In this document: positions 7,844 to 45,661 of the stretch, in pieces
Layout: each line of letters opens with the position of its first letter
How positions within the stretch are numbered: the first letter of the stretch is position 1
NCBI GenBank assembly: GCA_964503265.1
Contig: CAZCYO010000002.1
Span: 130,604 to 194,603 of the forward strand
Length of the DNA: 64,000 nucleotides
From: an uncultured Gammaproteobacteria bacterium
Lineage (GTDB): Bacteria; Patescibacteriota; Microgenomatia; Levybacterales; UBA12049
Direction: 5' to 3'
The notes under the pieces: generated by a model
Database searches by the model: none
Told to the model about the DNA's origin: nothing
Seen by the model: the letters and a program-made list of their open reading frames with translations, nothing else
Made by a program: the position numbers and the translations under genes

Positions 7844-8533
7844 TTACCTGGGGCGTTTCTTAATAAATTCATGTCGAATAATATATCCCAGCGAAAAGAC
7901 AAACAGTATAAATGACAGAATTTCACTTCCGTTCATAAAGAAATGTTCGGGACGACGAAATGGAATCATGTTTGCTAAAAACGATACAAGCGAAATCGAC
8001 ATGATAATAAGAAAAGTGCTGGTTCCATCTCTCACTTCTCCGCGTACGACAGCTGGTTGTACAAGCTTCATCATGATGGTGTACAGAATTGGATAAAAAA
8101 GTATCTCACCAATAATAACCATAATATATGGATGTGCTGGCAAAAAAAGAGTTCCGAGTAATCCAACTGGGAATGCGATAAGTAATACGATACTGAGTAA
8201 ATCTGCTACTCTATCAAAAGGAAATTTCTTGAGTTTTGAATAATACAGCAGAAATAATAATGCCCCAATAATACCTCCAGATAATGATAATCCCGGAAAG
8301 TAAGGAACAAGAAAAAATACGAGTAGGTTAAGATACTTCCAGCTTGGATTAAACGCTACATAAAATATACGTGCAAATAACAGCCCAGAGAAACATGTTA
8401 ATATCGCAATATTAAATAATTGCTCGAGCGTAACATTTTTTCTCATGAGCACCCAATCTTCTCGTGAAAGAATATGAAGAACAAACAGAAACGTGAGAAA
8501 ACTAAGCGTAAGAAATAAAAGTGAAAACTGCAT
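7844..8533 (-). CDS. Lgt-like (prolipoprotein diacylglyceryl transferase family) membrane protein lacking the GRxGNF signature
   Basis: Colinear blocks resemble Lgt (ARIFYV; PGLSLSGGIIGALL; KLKKFPFDRVADLLSIVLLIAFPVG) but the expected GRWGNFxNxE motif is replaced by GLLGTLF. Confidence 0.45.
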   Translation of the reverse strand: MQFSLLFLTLSFLTFLFVLHILSREDWVLMRKNVTLEQLFNIAILTCFSGLLFARIFYVAFNPSWKYLNLLVFFLVPYFPGLSLSGGIIGALLFLLYYSKLKKFPFDRVADLLSIVLLIAFPVGLLGTLFLPAHPYIMVIIGEILFYPILYTIMMKLVQPAVVRGEVRDGTSTFLIIMSISLVSFLANMIPFRRPEHFFMNGSEILSFILFVFSLGYIIRHEFIKKRPR

Positions 8534-31249: not shown

Positions 31250-31410
31250 ATCTATTCACCTCCCTTCACCTTGATTATTTCTTAAATTACTATTTCAAGG
31301 GATGTCGCAACGTCTTTAGATTTGCGACGCTTTCACCTTAATTATTTAATCTATAAATAGTAAGTGATGCCGAAATAGTACGAAAGTACTTTTTGGCGCC
31401 TCTTCCTACA
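31250..31410 (-). promoter_or_regulatory. conserved ~160-nt 5' leader, copy 1 (candidate cis-regulatory RNA or riboswitch-like element)
   Basis: About 93% identical over ~160 nt to 45442..45602; both copies abut a minus-strand start codon. Contains a duplicated module AAUAAUYAAGGUGAARG(G) carrying the SD. Confidence 0.5.
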
Positions 31411-31548
31411 GTAATAATAATCTATATATTTAGCATACAATACTGACTGAGGAGGTTGTCAAGAATTAATTGAATATGTTACCTTTTCAATCTCGTCGAA
31501 GAAGATAAATGTATGAAGGAAACTAAACGCTCATTTCTAAATGCTAGC

Positions 31549-39017: not shown

Positions 39018-40115
39018 TTAGGCTCCGATCTTAAACTCGACCACATCTCCATCTTTCATAATATAGTCTCTCCCCTCAAGTCTCGCCTTACCAGCAGTTC
39101 GAGCAGCTTTCACTCCATTTAGTGACACGTAGTCATCATATGAAATAACTTCAGCTTTAATAAATTTCTTCGTGAAATCCGTGTGGATTTCACCTGCTGC
39201 TTCTGGAGCACTGACTCCCTTTCGAGTCGTCCAGGCTCTGACTTCCTTCTCCCCTGCTGTAAGGAAAGAGATAAGGCCAAGTCTGTCATATGCCTTCGTG
39301 ATGAGACGCTCAAGGCCAGAGGTCGGGAAACCGAGATCATGGAGATACATTTTCTGCTCATCCTCATCAAGTGCTGCCAGTTCTGATTCGATCTTCGCAC
39401 AGATCACGACGAAGTTCTGTTCTGAGAGCTGGAGTAAATTCGCATAACGCTCGATCATCACCTGATTATTCACCAGTGAATAATCATCTTCTGAGACATT
39501 TAACACGATTACTTCAGGTTTAGAGGTAAGTAAAAAGAGCTGATCGAAGAGTATTTTCTCTTCTTCATCGACCTTCGTCTGTCGTGCTGGGATCCCCGCT
39601 TCGAGGTTTTCGAGTACTTTTTTATAGAAATTAATGGTGAGTGGTGGAAGTTTCCGATTCTCCAGTGCCTTCTGCATCGTCTGCATGTCAGCGATCATGA
39701 GCTCCGTCTGAATCGTCGCATAGTCACTCTCAGGGTCACTACTTCCCTCCCTGATCACATTCTCATCGATGAATGCGCGAACTACATGTGCAATAACTCG
39801 AACTTCACGAATGTGAGAAAGAAATTTATTCCCCAGCCCCGCCCCCTCTGATGCACCTTTGACGAGCCCAGCGATGTCGACGAATTCCACAGTCGCAGCC
39901 TTAATCGGTGGAAGTGACGACATTTTTTCCTCCTCCATCGTAATCTCAGCCAATTTCGTGAGTCGTGCATCCGGCACCGGAACGATCCCGACATTCGGTT
40001 CGATAGTAGCAAAAGGATAATTAGCCGCAAGAGCCTGCTGCTTCTTAAGCAGAGCATTAAAGAGAGTGGACTTCCCCACATTTGGTAAACCAACAATTCC
40101 TACAGATATGTTCAT
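39018..40115 (-). CDS. ychF: ribosome-binding ATPase YchF (Obg-family GTPase)
   Basis: MNISVGIVGLPNVGKSTLFNAL... G1-G4 motifs, C-terminal TGS domain. Confidence 0.9.
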   Translation of the reverse strand: MNISVGIVGLPNVGKSTLFNALLKKQQALAANYPFATIEPNVGIVPVPDARLTKLAEITMEEEKMSSLPPIKAATVEFVDIAGLVKGASEGAGLGNKFLSHIREVRVIAHVVRAFIDENVIREGSSDPESDYATIQTELMIADMQTMQKALENRKLPPLTINFYKKVLENLEAGIPARQTKVDEEEKILFDQLFLLTSKPEVIVLNVSEDDYSLVNNQVMIERYANLLQLSEQNFVVICAKIESELAALDEDEQKMYLHDLGFPTSGLERLITKAYDRLGLISFLTAGEKEVRAWTTRKGVSAPEAAGEIHTDFTKKFIKAEVISYDDYVSLNGVKAARTAGKARLEGRDYIMKDGDVVEFKIGA

Positions 40116-40134
40116 ATGAGGGTAATTATAACAG
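40099..40134. repeat. 36-bp exact direct repeat, copy 1 (contains the ychF RBS and first 6 codons)
   Basis: CCTACAGATATGTTCATATGAGGGTAATTATAACAG, identical to 43570..43605. Confidence 0.9.
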
Positions 40135-40673
40135 TTTACGTTCTAAAACAGAACAAAATAATTGCAGCATCATGACCACCCAAGAATTACTCATATTAAT
40201 CTTGAGCCTAATTTACTAAAACTGTAACATTGGTTAAACAATTGTGAGTTATAATCAAACTTTTGACTCAATTCAAGCTCAATTGTGATGCAATTCTGTT
40301 AAGAATTAATATTACTTGAATATTAAACGGCTGTGTGTAGCCTCTAGCACTATTCTTCTTCAAGCAACTGTACCTTCGTGACTTTCGATTATTACAATCT
40401 CCTTCGTTGGGCAATTTTCTTATCCTATTCAATGGTGCATATGGTTTTTATAGATCGAAGATTACAGGTTGGGCACTTATTTTTGGAGAAATCGTATTTC
40501 TATTTAATCCCATATATCTATTTAGCTTTCTCGTCAGACATGGAGTCCTATTGACTTTACAAGTGCAGTCTTATTTTTTATTGTGGGATATTCAAATGAA
40601 AAATCAACAGGTAAAATTGCAGATTGTATATCTCACAAGCATAGCTGTACAATTAACTTAAATTAATATTAAA

Positions 40674-41183
40674 ATGAAATGTATAAAATGCGACCAACGC
40701 ATAGACGAAGATTGTAAATATTGCCCCTCCTGTGGAAATAAGGTTGAGATAACTGATAAACCTGCTGTCGTAGAGGTTGAACATGAAATATTTGAACACC
40801 TCGAATTTCTAGGCTACGAGACTAACAAACTTGAAGTAAATGCTGGAAACGCACAACGATACTCCGCAATTCATAAAGGAAGTAAACCAAACTTACTTTT
40901 CAATGCAATAACTGACATTGGAACTTCCTTTGTAACTCTTTACAACATAAATGAAGATAAAGTTAAGAAGAACCACAAAGAGGCTCTTGAAACCGTTAAT
41001 AGAATGAACTATCAAACGCTATTTTGTTCTTTCTCAATATCTCCTGAGTTAAATAGCTTCGTATGTAGTGCCTTGTATTTAGGAAAATATAGCAAAAAAC
41101 AATTTGCCGATTTTCTAGACTTATTTGAAAACGATATTCAAAGAAGACTCAGAGAAGAAGATTACTTAAAAGACATTTCATAA
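40674..41183 (+). CDS. zinc-ribbon protein 1 of cassette (N-terminal CxxC...CxxC; C-terminal YbjN-like soluble domain suspected)
   Basis: MKCIKCDQRIDEDCKYCPSCG; 169 aa; ends 2 nt before the next gene. Confidence 0.5.
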   Translation: MKCIKCDQRIDEDCKYCPSCGNKVEITDKPAVVEVEHEIFEHLEFLGYETNKLEVNAGNAQRYSAIHKGSKPNLLFNAITDIGTSFVTLYNINEDKVKKNHKEALETVNRMNYQTLFCSFSISPELNSFVCSALYLGKYSKKQFADFLDLFENDIQRRLREEDYLKDIS

Positions 41184-41185
41184 CT

Positions 41186-42082
41186 ATGTATTGTCATAAA
41201 TGTAGTAAACAAATTCTTGAAAATAGTAAATTTTGCAAGCATTGTGGTGTTCAGTTAGAGGGAGTAAGGAAAGACATTGAATCTAAACAAATTGAACAAC
41301 CTAGTCTCCCACATAAATCAGAAAAAAAGAAGTCTTGGGGAGGAATCATTAAAATTCTGGTTCTTCTTGCAATATTTGGTTTTGGAACATATAGTGCTGT
41401 AGATAAAGAACAAATAAAAACGAACAACGAAGCAATTATAACGTTTGACGCTGGAGATAAAAAAACTGCTATTGAACAATTTCGTAAAGCAGCAAATGAA
41501 GCTACATCAAATGAAGTAAAAGTTTCAGCACTTAAAAATCTTGCCTATGTATATTCGACTGATACGCAAACAACCGAAGCATTGGGTGCGTTCAACGAAG
41601 CTCTTCCCTTAACAACACAAAACACATTCGACTATTATCTGATTTCAGGAGAAATTGCTCTACTTAATCGAGATATTAATAAAGCCTTAACTAATTACAA
41701 TAGTGCTTACAGGCTTAATCCCGAAAATTTTCAAATTAATAATGCGCTAGCATTATTCCATTTAGATTTAGAAGGGATTGCGCCAAAATATACTGACTAC
41801 AGCAAAGCACTTCTCTATGCTAAAAAAGCAAATGAACTAAGCCCTTCAGAAACATCGAAGCAAAACCTCGCGATAGCTTATTATTACAATAAAAACTACA
41901 GTGAAACTATAACTTTACTATCTTCATCCAACTTTACTCAACATCCTTATGCAGCGTATTGGCTTGGTCTTGCGTATCTAGGAAACAAAGATGATGCAAA
42001 TGCAAAAATCTATTTACAAAAGTCTATTGATAATGGAGCCGAAGCCTCTCAAGAAGTTCACGATTATTTAAACTCAAATTAA
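41186..42082 (+). CDS. zinc-ribbon protein 2 of cassette (N-terminal zinc ribbon, one TM helix, extracytoplasmic TPR repeats)
   Basis: MYCHKCSKQILENSKFCKHCG; TM ...IIKILVLLAIFGFGTYSAV...; TPR-like repeats (...ALKNLAYVYS..., ...YWLGLAYLGN...). Confidence 0.5.
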   Translation: MYCHKCSKQILENSKFCKHCGVQLEGVRKDIESKQIEQPSLPHKSEKKKSWGGIIKILVLLAIFGFGTYSAVDKEQIKTNNEAIITFDAGDKKTAIEQFRKAANEATSNEVKVSALKNLAYVYSTDTQTTEALGAFNEALPLTTQNTFDYYLISGEIALLNRDINKALTNYNSAYRLNPENFQINNALALFHLDLEGIAPKYTDYSKALLYAKKANELSPSETSKQNLAIAYYYNKNYSETITLLSSSNFTQHPYAAYWLGLAYLGNKDDANAKIYLQKSIDNGAEASQEVHDYLNSN

Positions 42083-42083
42083 T

Positions 42084-43424
42084 ATGTATTGTAAGCACTG
42101 TGGAAAGAAAAACCCTGAAGGTAGTAAATTTTGTCAGCATTGCGGTCAGGAAATTGATAACATAGCGAAGACCGACAATACCCAATATGAAGAAAAGCAT
42201 TCTATAGATAAACATATAGACCAGAATACCGCTCCATACCCCTATGTAATCTCAACTTGGAAGCTAATAATTATGTGTTTAGCAACTTTTGGAATTTTTG
42301 AGATTTATTGGTTCTATAAACAATGGAAATCTCTTAATACGGAGAATAACCTCAAGCATGGATGGTTTATGCTTTGGATATTCGCACTTTTTTCTCCTCT
42401 AACGTCTTACTCACTATTCAAGTATATCTCACGAGATGTAAAAACTGTGAATGATGGAAAAGGCTTAGAAGCAGGAGCTCTAGCAGTAGTGTATTTTTTC
42501 TTAACCAGGTTCTTACTTGGATTTTTACCTTTAATTTCAGTTCAAAACAATATAAATCTATATTGGGAGAAAAAGTACAAAGATAGACTTGTGAGGTCAA
42601 ATTTCGGGGCTTGGAATTGGATTATTGTTATTGGTGTTGCACTTATTTTTATAACAGCCTTTTATTCGGAAGACACAACTACCACCAAAACCACATCAAA
42701 CATCCCAGAAACTGCCGTAATTGAGAAAGATAGTCGAGAAGAAATTGCATCTTCAGTTGTAAACATTCTTTGCCCTAGTACAAGTAATGCCAAAAACGAA
42801 TCATCGAGTGGGGGCTCTGGTATCATATTAACCAAAGATGGAATAATATTAACTAATTCTCATATTATTCCGCAAAATAAGACAAATATACTAGTAGACG
42901 AAACAGGATGCTTAGTTGTTTTACCAGACTCACTAACAGGACAGCCATCAGAAGTTTACCTAGCGCATCCTATTGTTATTCCAGGTATAAGCGATGATTA
43001 CGACCTAGCATACATGCAAATATACAATGCTTATTACGACAAGGAAGAAGGGAAATACAAGGGAACCTATCCTAAGACATTCCCTGCTTTTGATGACACA
43101 AACCGATGCAAGAATGAAAATATTAAACTAGGTGAACCAGTAAGAATTTATGGCTATCCTGCTATTAGTGGAGGATATTCACTAACTGTAACTGATGGAG
43201 TTGTTAGTAGTTTTCCTGGGAATGGTTTAATAGTTACATCAGCTAAAATTAGCCATGGAAACTCTGGTGGCTTAGCAGTTGATAAAGATGGCTGTATGCT
43301 TGGTGTACCATCACTAGTAAGCTCTGATGATAGCGAGAGTTTGGGTGTAATATATTCAATGTCTTTAATTAATGAATTTGAATCTGAAGTCACGAAATAT
43401 TTGAATAAAAACCATTCAAAATAA
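42084..43424 (+). CDS. zinc-ribbon protein 3 of cassette (zinc ribbon, DUF4234-like multi-TM region, C-terminal trypsin-like serine protease domain)
   Basis: MYCKHCGKKNPEGSKFCQHCG; TM region with FEIYWFYKQW; protease motifs ...TNSHII... and ...ISHGNSGGLAVDKDG... Confidence 0.55.
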   Translation: MYCKHCGKKNPEGSKFCQHCGQEIDNIAKTDNTQYEEKHSIDKHIDQNTAPYPYVISTWKLIIMCLATFGIFEIYWFYKQWKSLNTENNLKHGWFMLWIFALFSPLTSYSLFKYISRDVKTVNDGKGLEAGALAVVYFFLTRFLLGFLPLISVQNNINLYWEKKYKDRLVRSNFGAWNWIIVIGVALIFITAFYSEDTTTTKTTSNIPETAVIEKDSREEIASSVVNILCPSTSNAKNESSSGGSGIILTKDGIILTNSHIIPQNKTNILVDETGCLVVLPDSLTGQPSEVYLAHPIVIPGISDDYDLAYMQIYNAYYDKEEGKYKGTYPKTFPAFDDTNRCKNENIKLGEPVRIYGYPAISGGYSLTVTDGVVSSFPGNGLIVTSAKISHGNSGGLAVDKDGCMLGVPSLVSSDDSESLGVIYSMSLINEFESEVTKYLNKNHSK

Positions 43425-43569
43425 TAAATCATTACTGGTTGAATAATTTTAAGCTAACAATCTTCCCCAGATCATCTCTCGCAACTATTTTCCTTAATTT
43501 TCGTGGCTTGGGAAGTTTAATTTTTACTACAAAGGGGAAACTGTTATGTCGGGTTATGTTCTGACTATC

Positions 43570-43605
43570 CCTACAGATATGTTCATATGAGGGTAATTAT
43601 AACAG
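43570..43605. repeat. 36-bp exact direct repeat, copy 2 (creates a truncated ychF' start: MNISVGIVRT*)
   Basis: Identical to 40099..40134; lies 3 nt downstream (minus strand) of the stop of gene 43608..44135. Confidence 0.9.
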
Positions 43606-43607
43606 AT

Positions 43608-44135
43608 CTAATCTTGTGAAATCTCCCAGGGTAATTTACTCTTGTCTAAAAACTTACAAGGGATCTTCTTATTAAACTCGCTCCATAGATTACGAGTAAC
43701 TGCGATATGAAGCCTCGCGTACTGCCCAGCTGATCCAGCATTACCAAACTCTTTTTCCCTATCAACCACTTTTCCTAAATGAGGAATCATGACGCTCTCG
43801 TAAGGAAAATCTGGCGGAAATTGAGATCTCGTAAAATCAACTCGCTGTCCATCTGGCAAAACATTTAAGTAATGACTTCCCCTTACATATACTCCCCATT
43901 GCTGTGCAAGATCACCGAACCAATATCCTTGAATATCTCCTCCAAAAAGATCATTGGTTACTTGGGCTGCTGCACTGCAGTGTCCAAATGATGGATATTC
44001 CGGTCGCCATCCCTCAGGATTAGCTAGGATATTCGACGAGAAGGATAGTTGAAATGCTTTTCCAAGCTCTTCAAGCGTAACTCCTGTTTCTTTGTTTACA
44101 AGTTGTTCAGGATTATATCCCAATCTTTCACCCAT
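43608..44135 (-). CDS. hypothetical protein
   Basis: 175-aa soluble ORF; no family recognised. Confidence 0.4.
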   Translation of the reverse strand: MGERLGYNPEQLVNKETGVTLEELGKAFQLSFSSNILANPEGWRPEYPSFGHCSAAAQVTNDLFGGDIQGYWFGDLAQQWGVYVRGSHYLNVLPDGQRVDFTRSQFPPDFPYESVMIPHLGKVVDREKEFGNAGSAGQYARLHIAVTRNLWSEFNKKIPCKFLDKSKLPWEISQD

Positions 44136-45441: not shown

Positions 45442-45602
45442 ATATGATTCACCCCCCTTCACCTTGATTATTTCTTAAACTACTATTTCAAGGGATGTCG
45501 CAATATCTTTAGATTTGCGCCCCTTTCACCTTGATTATTTAATCTATAAATAGTAAGTGATGCCGAAATTGTACGAAAGTACTTTTTGGCGCCTCTTCCT
45601 AC
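45442..45602 (-). promoter_or_regulatory. conserved ~160-nt 5' leader, copy 2 (candidate cis-regulatory RNA)
   Basis: Near-identical to 31250..31410. Transcript begins ...GUAGGAAGAGGCGCC... and ends ...AAUAAUCAAGGUGAAGGGGGGUGAAUCAUAU-AUG. Confidence 0.5.
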
Positions 45603-45661
45603 ATTAGTTATATATTGTAATAGAAATATTATTTTTTTTGTAGCTCTTATAGAAATAAGCT

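Follow-up and report, generated by a model that had tools for sequence, protein, structure and literature searches.

A zinc-ribbon, TPR, and protease gene block between two copies of the ychF start in a Levyibacteriota-like bacterium: a candidate fragment of an integrative element

How did three zinc-ribbon genes come to lie between a YunG-family gene and ychF, bracketed by two copies of a sequence that contains the start of ychF, with ychF itself intact? We addressed this question in a stretch of 64,000 nucleotides (nt) from contig CAZCYO010000002.1 (assembly GCA_964503265.1, positions 130,604 to 194,603 of the forward strand), which is referred to below as the window and to which all coordinates apply unless another locus is named. 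The host organism is Levyibacteriota-like, and the best orthologues of its YchF protein are 71% and 63% identical. Our results indicate that the block is very probably an insertion between the two genes. We lean towards the view that it is an orphan piece, in part decayed, of an integrative element from candidate phyla radiation (CPR) bacteria, joined to the chromosome across ychF-like sequence in a manner that left ychF intact. The parent was most likely a small integrative mobile element of Microgenomates-type CPR bacteria, and the block would derive from its accessory module. The features of the locus are listed in Table 1.

Table 1. Features of the ychF locus, in window coordinates
Feature	Position	Strand	Basis or remark
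ychF, intact, 365 amino acids (aa), target gene	39018..40115	-	Pfam YchF-GTPase_C and MMR_HSR1
Repeat copy 1, attR-like	40099..40134	-	Exact match of 36 base pairs (bp); TGTTATAAT, 9 nt, then ATG and first codons of intact ychF
Left-end insert segment, 169 nt	40135..40303	+	No detectable relative in any fetched locus
DUF6804 pseudogene	40304..40607	+	Four homologous pieces in three reading frames; three frameshifts, in-frame stops
g1, 169 aa, soluble; N-terminal zinc ribbon and YbjN/type III secretion chaperone-like domain	40674..41183	+	
g2, 298 aa; N-terminal zinc ribbon, one transmembrane (TM) helix (54-72), TPR domain	41186..42082	+	Pfam, hydropathy
g3, 446 aa; N-terminal zinc ribbon, DUF4234, TM helix 176-194, disordered linker, S1 protease	42084..43424	+	
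Conserved 3' flank of protease gene	43425..43524	+	Common to the L084 element
ychF' stub open reading frame, MNISVGIVRT (stop)	43554..43586	-	Similarity to ychF ends after codon 8
Repeat copy 2, attL-like	43570..43605	-	Begins 2 nt past the YunG stop codon; junction covered by contig L002
YunG-family gene, upstream flank of insertion	43608..44135	-	Pfam PF24585

The 36-bp sequence CCTACAGATATGTTCATATGAGGGTAATTATAACAG is present in exactly two copies in the window (40099-40134 and 43570-43605). The original prediction, made by reading the sequence, had named this exact repeat, and it was borne out by an exact search, by a search for further copies with up to 3 mismatches, which gave no third copy in the 64 kb, and by 100 shuffles, which gave 0. 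The repeat is one of only two families of direct repeats of 24 nt or longer in the whole window, and the similarity reaches 42 nt if 2 mismatches are allowed. On the minus strand, both copies have the sequence CTGTTATAATTACCCTCAT ATG AAC ATA TCT GTA GG, which spans ychF from its -10 box through codon 6. Copy 1 continues into intact ychF (GGA ATT GTT GGT ...), and copy 2 continues as GGG ATA GTC AGA ACA TAA, encoding the stub. The predicted rebuilding of a ychF start and the predicted stub product both hold, but the stub does not lie 3 nt after the stop codon of the upstream gene, as had been claimed; it is the repeat that begins 2 nt past the YunG stop, and the ATG of the stub (43586, minus strand) is located 21 nt past it. 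Codons 6 to 8 of the stub (GGG ATA GTC) differ from those of ychF (GGA ATT GTT) only at synonymous third positions. Since GGN always encodes Gly, this signal comes from the Ile and Val codons only, and the chance of finding synonymous codons here is about 0.5%, a rough estimate that was made post hoc. The codon-wise similarity extends beyond the core, and therefore the incoming site was probably derived from, or mimicked, a diverged ychF start.

The content of the repeat offers an explanation for why ychF is undamaged. The gene is a full-length open reading frame (ORF) with an N terminus that aligns with those of its orthologues, and it keeps its two Pfam domains. TGTTATAAT, located 9 nt ahead of the ATG, is an extended -10 box. 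No Shine-Dalgarno sequence is visible ahead of the ychF ATG; the element with which the repeat opens is this promoter box and not the ribosome-binding site that had been assigned to copy 1. The same arrangement of -10 box and ATG is found at the YunG gene (TGCTATAAT, 11 nt, ATG), at several other genes of the window, and at the NYN gene of a syntenic locus from another genome, L110. We infer from this arrangement that ychF is transcribed into a leaderless or near-leaderless mRNA, for which the repeat supplies the complete promoter and the start. With the extended -10 promoter and the start codon both inside the duplicated 36 bp, ychF would retain its own promoter and N terminus and escape damage by the insertion. 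Copy 1 would thus keep ychF expressed, and transcription from copy 2 would cover the stub and perhaps continue through the block in the antisense direction. Promoter and terminator scans of the block gave results at background level, Rfam searches of the block (E values up to 1) and of the whole window detected only a distant tRNA, and a tRNA scan found no tRNA near the block.

The DNA between the two copies is 3,435 bp in length (40135-43569) and contains three plus-strand ORFs, g1, g2, and g3, which are separated by the predicted gaps of 2 and 1 nt and are antisense to both ychF and the YunG gene. Its GC content is 0.33-0.35, versus 0.41-0.49 in the flanking genes. In L110, the order of genes is YunG, a gene for a 205-aa secreted protein, the NYN gene, ychF, one unrelated gene, and rpsF-ssb-rpsR; the trio is absent, and there is no duplicate of the ychF start. 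Two further loci, L003 and L004, harbor other genes upstream of ychF, not the trio. The repeat, the GC content, the antisense orientation, L110, and the presence of relatives elsewhere all support the earlier proposal that about 3.4 kb has been inserted between the upstream gene and ychF. It could be argued instead that the trio is ancestral at this locus and that the promoter and start of ychF were duplicated locally to give the repeat, with nothing inserted; some resident genes are as AT-rich as the trio, and an exact empty site was not found. This is very unlikely, as the trio is absent from L110, L003, and L004, its closest relatives (80% DNA identity) occupy unrelated loci inside mobile elements, and it is antisense to both neighbors and carries a pseudogene of an element-associated family.

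Searches for further versions of the locus gave little. The exact YchF protein is not on record elsewhere, the contigs with the exact YunG protein belong to the same genome, and scans of JGI metagenomes with YunG and with the 36-bp core found nothing. Only 6 homologues of YunG were obtained, one of which led to L110, which is syntenic and not empty. In L110 (6662-7158), YunG is split by a frameshift into ORFs of 127 and 44 aa, and an AbiEii gene lies just upstream; in that genome, too, the surroundings of YunG are variable.

The window is matched at 100% identity by two other assemblies of this organism. An independent metaSPAdes contig (L002, ERZ4216102) spans the YunG gene, copy 2, and the 3' end of the protease gene at 100% identity with more than 180 nt on each side, and the junction at copy 2 is therefore real. 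No independent contig reaches across the junction of copy 1 with ychF, and Logan contigs break exactly at the repeat. These two facts are what would be seen if a separate molecule sharing 36 bp with the ychF start had been threaded into the chromosome during assembly. Such an artefact is hardly credible in view of L002, and the synonymous codons of the stub would be hard to explain by it.

The 539-bp stretch ahead of g1 had been described as a non-coding leader of about 540 bp, but it holds a DUF6804 pseudogene. The pseudogene gave a weak Pfam match and was found by tblastn with the DUF6804 protein of a related locus, L084. Its pieces, LNIKRLCVASSTILLQATVPS (ending in a stop), DYYNLLRWAIFLS, AYGFYRSKITGWALIFGEIVFLFNPIY, and LSRQTWSPIDFTSAVLFFIVGYSNEKS, align in order to the intact DUF6804 proteins of related loci, and its DNA is 75% identical to the intact gene at L096:4906-5210. 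In L084 and L096-L101, a gene for a membrane protein of 220-254 aa lies between DUF6804 and the g1 homologue, and the window keeps 33 nt at this position. The pseudogene and the missing intermediate gene therefore argue that the insert is a partly decayed piece of a longer gene array. On the other side, homology to L084 ends at 43524, leaving 45 unique nt before copy 2. No relatives of 40135-40303 or 43525-43569 were found in the fetched loci or elsewhere in the window. Homologues of the backbone genes of the related elements, HTH_17 included, are likewise absent from all 64 kb.

The trio is not the self-contained three-gene cassette of the original prediction; it is part of a longer and variable zinc-ribbon array on integrative elements. 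The 5' zinc-ribbon coding segments of neighboring genes share 62-80% DNA identity. The arrays consist of paralogues, the number of which varies. The 5' ends of g2 and g3 (41180-41248 and 42078-42146), comprising the zinc-ribbon part and the preceding junction, are 74% identical in DNA over 69 nt. A similar likeness is seen among neighboring array genes in L084 and L088, and it could promote the gain or loss of members by recombination.

We identified 534 homologues of the protease, mostly from Patescibacteria metagenomes. Full-length homologues have about 440 aa, and a shorter type, of about 306 aa, lacks the DUF4234 region. Six distinct contexts of relatives of the module, with protease identities of 56-85%, were read. 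In L084/L085 (84% protease identity and 80% DNA identity over 40648-43524), the genes are PrimPol/D5_N, DUF5659, RDD, FtsK, DUF6804, a 254-aa gene, and the trio. L088/L089 (85%) has HTH_17, two zinc-ribbon genes, TPR, protease, and a large serine recombinase, with an end overlapping a tRNA-Asn gene. L090-L095 (79%) have recombinase, HTH_3, FtsK_gamma, HTH_17, three zinc-ribbon genes, TPR, and protease, followed by host genes. L096-L101 (71%) have DUF6804, a 240-aa gene, a g1-like gene, zinc-ribbon-DUF2569, TPR, protease, HTH_3, DUF5659, and a recombinase gene overlapping a tRNA-Gln gene. L113-L115 (56%) have HTH_17, three zinc-ribbon genes, protease, two small ORFs, and a recombinase gene. L086/L087 (74%) has a similar array, antisense between glycosyltransferase genes. 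Over homologous stretches, the loci with 71-85% protease identity are 72-81% identical in DNA. The module thus lies inside a small integrative element in five of the six contexts. A large serine recombinase is encoded in four of these five, and the fifth (L084) encodes a PrimPol/D5 primase and FtsK; HTH_17 and HTH_3 genes are present in most of them.

Several features of these related loci deserve mention in their own right. The recombinase ORFs at L088 8742-10262 and L100 18739-20411 end inside opposite-strand tRNA genes (tRNA-Asn and tRNA-Gln, respectively), which suggests integration into tRNA genes with the recombinase gene reaching the end of the element. Directly downstream of the trio homologue in L084 (11350-14339) are genes with SMEK_N/CTD12 and MC6/MC8 domains. 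These domains occur in predicted NTP-dependent conflict systems, which places the module among conflict genes at this locus. A 35-43-nt repeat, GTGCTGAAAGCCGTAGACGACGTTAGAACTTTTTAT, is present in three copies (L097/L098 3063-4278, L100 5063-6278, and L099 3091-6281). Between its copies, at the left edge of the element with the recombinase gene, lie genes for an S51 peptidase and a 134-aa protein, and in sister contigs two copies bracket a different, 3.15-kb set of four genes. In translation this repeat gives (M)LLLKAVDDVRTFY, and most differences among its copies fall on third codon positions; a further case of a duplicated gene start, with swapping of cassettes, is therefore possible. Finally, L113 and L114 share 99.99% identity from position 8135 onward, and their sequences to its left are unrelated. 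The L113 breakpoint lies about 32 codons into an apparent secF gene, judged by its N-terminal residues, and produces a secF'-HTH_17 fusion ORF; this represents either a second insertion site in the 5' part of a gene or a chimeric contig.

How might a fragment of such an element have arrived at ychF? In the scheme that we favor, a circular DNA with ychF-like sequence from the extended -10 box to codon 8 would have recombined conservatively with the promoter and start of the resident ychF, with the crossover inside the 36 identical bases. The chromosomal site would have been AGATTAGAT-core-AATTGTTGG and the site on the circle GAACGTAAA-core-GATAGTCAGAAC; the occupied junctions are GAACGTAAA + core + AATTGTTGGTTTACC on the left and CAAGATTAGAT + core + GATAGTCAGAAC on the right. 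One product would be the hybrid copy beside YunG, followed by the synonymous codons 6 to 8 of the donor and a stop, and the other would be the second copy ahead of an undamaged ychF. The recombinase and the rest of the element, which are no longer present, would have been lost by deletion, or the recombinase would have acted in trans. The DUF6804 gene has decayed, and the gene between it and g1 would have been lost by deletion.

A number of observations weigh against this interpretation. As had been noted originally, there is no integrase or transposase in the block, with only g1 to g3 and the pseudogene between the repeats. No recombinase was found in the 64 kb by tblastn with three large serine recombinases, a search that was not aimed specifically at tyrosine integrases. 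The gene-neighborhood comparison called for at the outset did reveal relatives inside elements at other loci, but a true empty site, with YunG followed directly by ychF and no repeat, was not found, and the closest syntenic genome has other genes in between. The GC contrast is moderate, with the resident rpsF gene and a 198-aa gene being equally AT-rich. Around L086, no element genes are present within 9 kb. In L086, L084, L088, L090, L099, and L100, the flanks of the module contain no long direct repeats, no ychF-like stub is found in any other module-bearing locus, and for at least two of the related elements with a recombinase gene the end lies at a tRNA gene. For large serine recombinases, a very short core in common is normally sufficient. 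Given the tRNA ends, the lack of long repeats, and the short cores of these enzymes, it is therefore not obvious how a recombinase of the family linked to the module would account for a repeat of 36 bp.

This raises the question of whether a site-specific enzyme was needed. Site-specific insertion, as originally predicted, is plausible, but a single crossover by homologous recombination across the same 36-43 bp gives an equal structure. In such a RecA-type (Campbell) scenario, imprecise excision of a donor element located at ychF would have produced a circle that included about 45 bp from the promoter and start of the donor ychF, and this circle would have recombined, through the short homology, with the ychF of the recipient. 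The similarity past the 36 bp, which follows codons with synonymous differences only, is what a diverged ychF allele would give, and there is no recombinase at this locus and no long att repeat in the recombinase elements that carry the module. However, a donor-type locus with the module beside ychF was not found, and 36-43 bp is short, near the lower limit for efficient homologous recombination. We consider this route possible but doubtful.

Two other origins were rejected. A transposon target-site duplication does not fit, as there is no transposase, 36 bp is too long, and the codon-wise similarity continues past the repeat; near the ends there is only an inverted match of 10 nt. The arms of this match (40128-40137 and 43537-43546) are ATAACAGTTT, which spans the junction between copy 1 and the block, and AAACTGTTAT, which lies 24 nt inside copy 2, and it is possibly due to chance. 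An integron cassette was also dismissed, as there is no integron integrase and no attC-like structure was seen, the latter without a specific test of the attC model.

One may also ask whether the block, here interpreted as a remnant, is a still-active miniature cassette that a recombinase encoded elsewhere excises as a 3,471-bp circle and reinserts at gene starts. The two copies of the repeat are perfectly identical, and small gene sets bracketed by direct repeats of 35-43 nt, differing between strains, are found in L097-L101. In addition, a 3,501-bp Logan contig, L083, is equivalent to one repeat period (3,471 bp) plus 30 bases, with matching ends. However, a k=31 assembly graph gives this shape for any 36-bp flanking repeat, which makes L083 uninformative with regard to a circle, and we rejected it as evidence for an excised form. 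The block also contains a pseudogene, neither a second copy nor an empty site or circle junction was observed, and the core is absent from the JGI metagenomes. An active cassette is thus unlikely.

Turning to the proteins, all three harbor an N-terminal zinc ribbon (Pfam Zn_Ribbon_1/DZR) of the form CxxC-N10-CxxC, and the spacing of N12/13 given earlier is not supported by the translations. The domains that follow, YbjN in g1, a TM helix and TPR in g2, and DUF4234 and a trypsin-like protease in g3, are those originally assigned, and Pfam searches confirm them. For g1, the YbjN score is 25.6 bits against a cutoff of 22, and in a structure model of low confidence, with a predicted local distance difference test (pLDDT) value of 60, residues 37-161 display the order of helices and strands of the YbjN/class I type III secretion chaperone fold. 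In these respects g1 resembles YbjN and the class I chaperones (CesT/SycE fold). It differs in its N-terminal zinc ribbon, in the absence of a type III secretion system, and in its identity of only 4-15% to the matched structures.

In the case of g3, DUF4234 scores 26.0 against a cutoff of 25.3, and Trypsin_2 is detected with an E value of 7.5e-14. The model (pLDDT 77) presents a confident helical DUF4234 region (58-168) and a disordered, Thr-rich linker, and Foldseek matches the protease domain to DegS/HtrA1 (E value of 1e-13, target template modeling scores of 0.7-0.8). H260, D307, S394, and four Cys residues are invariant across 36 homologues. The protease domain is suggested to face outward by a very basic loop before the last helix, an acidic linker after it, and the conserved cysteines. 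Like DegS/HtrA (S1C) and MarP-type proteases, g3 has this protease fold, a GNSGG motif, a His-Asp-Ser triad, and an N-terminal anchor ahead of the protease. Unlike them, it adds a cytoplasmic zinc ribbon and DUF4234, has no sigma or anti-sigma partner, and lacks PDZ; no such domain was found by Pfam, and the protein ends with the protease domain. Its NCBIfam scores are all far below the family cutoffs. Comparison with L084 gave ratios of nonsynonymous to synonymous substitution rates of 0.21 for g2 and 0.19 for g3, and for g1 a nonsynonymous proportion of 0.19 versus a synonymous proportion of 0.77. These values indicate that g1 to g3 have been under purifying selection; with the invariant triad and cysteines and the recognizable folds, they suggest that the genes are functional.

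The original prediction held that no described system has this composition, and our database and literature searches agree. PADLOC, PHROGs, and NCBIfam contain no specific family for the trio. PADLOC-DB 2.0 gave only generic protease-domain matches (RT-Protease_XI, E value of 2e-9) and one weak match to Csx28, IMG/VR gave only matches at the level of the zinc ribbon, GenBank phages gave no match, and plasmids gave generic protease-domain matches only. A literature search returned nothing on this combination of proteins. An analogy to anti-sigma modules had also been drawn. The DegS-like protease fold agrees with it, but a sigma factor or anti-sigma domain was not found in any locus examined, and an anti-sigma module was rejected on the grounds that Pfam detects no sigma or anti-sigma family in g1 to g3 or in the gene lists of 12 related loci.

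What, then, could the module do? In g2 and g3, a cytoplasmic zinc ribbon would be followed by a membrane anchor, with the TPR domain and the protease on the outer face, and g1 would be a cytoplasmic zinc-ribbon adaptor or chaperone-fold protein. A proteolytic complex of the three proteins that faces the envelope may form by way of their shared ribbons; in it, the TPR protein would recruit substrates on the outer face in place of the missing PDZ domain and the protease would cleave envelope proteins. In the parent elements, the module is located between the HTH_17 gene and the recombinase gene or the end of the element. Prophages keep conversion and exclusion genes in comparable positions, and we therefore tentatively favor a role in the service of the element, in competitor exclusion or envelope remodeling. 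The main alternative is general envelope quality control. Membrane topology, complex formation, and function are all predicted, and this counts against the proposal.

A direct repeat of 166 nt with 93% identity was also seen at 31254-31419 and 45447-45612. It lies upstream of two unrelated minus-strand genes, encoding a 68-aa membrane protein (start 31249) and a glyoxalase-like protein (start 45462), with a shared leader of about 190 nt. The repeat contains an internally duplicated AATAATCAAGGTGAAGG and has no Rfam match, and it is a candidate cis-regulatory leader.

Insertions that spare a conserved gene are known from other bacteria. SXT/R391 elements insert at the 5' end of prfC (PMC2791158), and Tn5253 inserts in rbgA with a duplication of 17-84 bp that restores the rbgA coding sequence (PMC8571831). 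The block resembles both in its insertion at the end of a conserved gene for a translation-associated GTPase, in its flanking direct repeats representing a shared att sequence, and in keeping the target gene intact. Unlike these elements, it has no integrase, excisionase, or transfer genes, is only 3.4 kb in length and partly decayed, has a CPR bacterium as its host, and is known here from assembled sequence alone; moreover, its repeat includes the promoter of a probably leaderless gene. With the small elements of Microgenomates/Patescibacteria (L084, L088-L101, and L113-L115), the block shares the zinc-ribbon array, the zinc-ribbon-TPR and zinc-ribbon-DUF4234-protease genes, and, in some, DUF6804. 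It differs from them in its position at ychF and in its 36-bp repeat, and of their genes the window contains the module alone and none of the backbone. No description of elements of this type was found in the literature searched, and to our knowledge the mobile elements of CPR bacteria have barely been described.

Two broader ideas can be formulated, which are speculative and, taken jointly, rather unlikely. One is that these genomes have a cassette system: small sets of genes would be flanked by repeats of 35-45 bp that copy a promoter and first codons, and a recombinase acting in trans would move them. The ribbon/TPR/protease operon may at the same time be the conserved part of an undescribed family of small elements in Microgenomates-type bacteria, forming an envelope-spanning machine for exclusion, entry, or surface remodeling. 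If the cassette system were real, insertions could land harmlessly at the promoters of leaderless essential genes, and the block would still be mobile and not a remnant.

What is new here is the undescribed membrane-protease module and its linkage to small integrative elements; an att-like duplication that spares a gene is already known elsewhere. The locus presents such a gene-sparing insertion at the promoter and start of a conserved GTPase gene. Should the block be no more than a decaying remnant, it would count as an ordinary genomic islet. The module itself is uncharacterized and recurs in Levyi-, Roizman-, and related bacteria, where its carriers are small integrative elements that mostly encode a serine recombinase. 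If it acts on the envelope, it could matter for how elements exclude one another or for the biology of the cell surface in these hosts.

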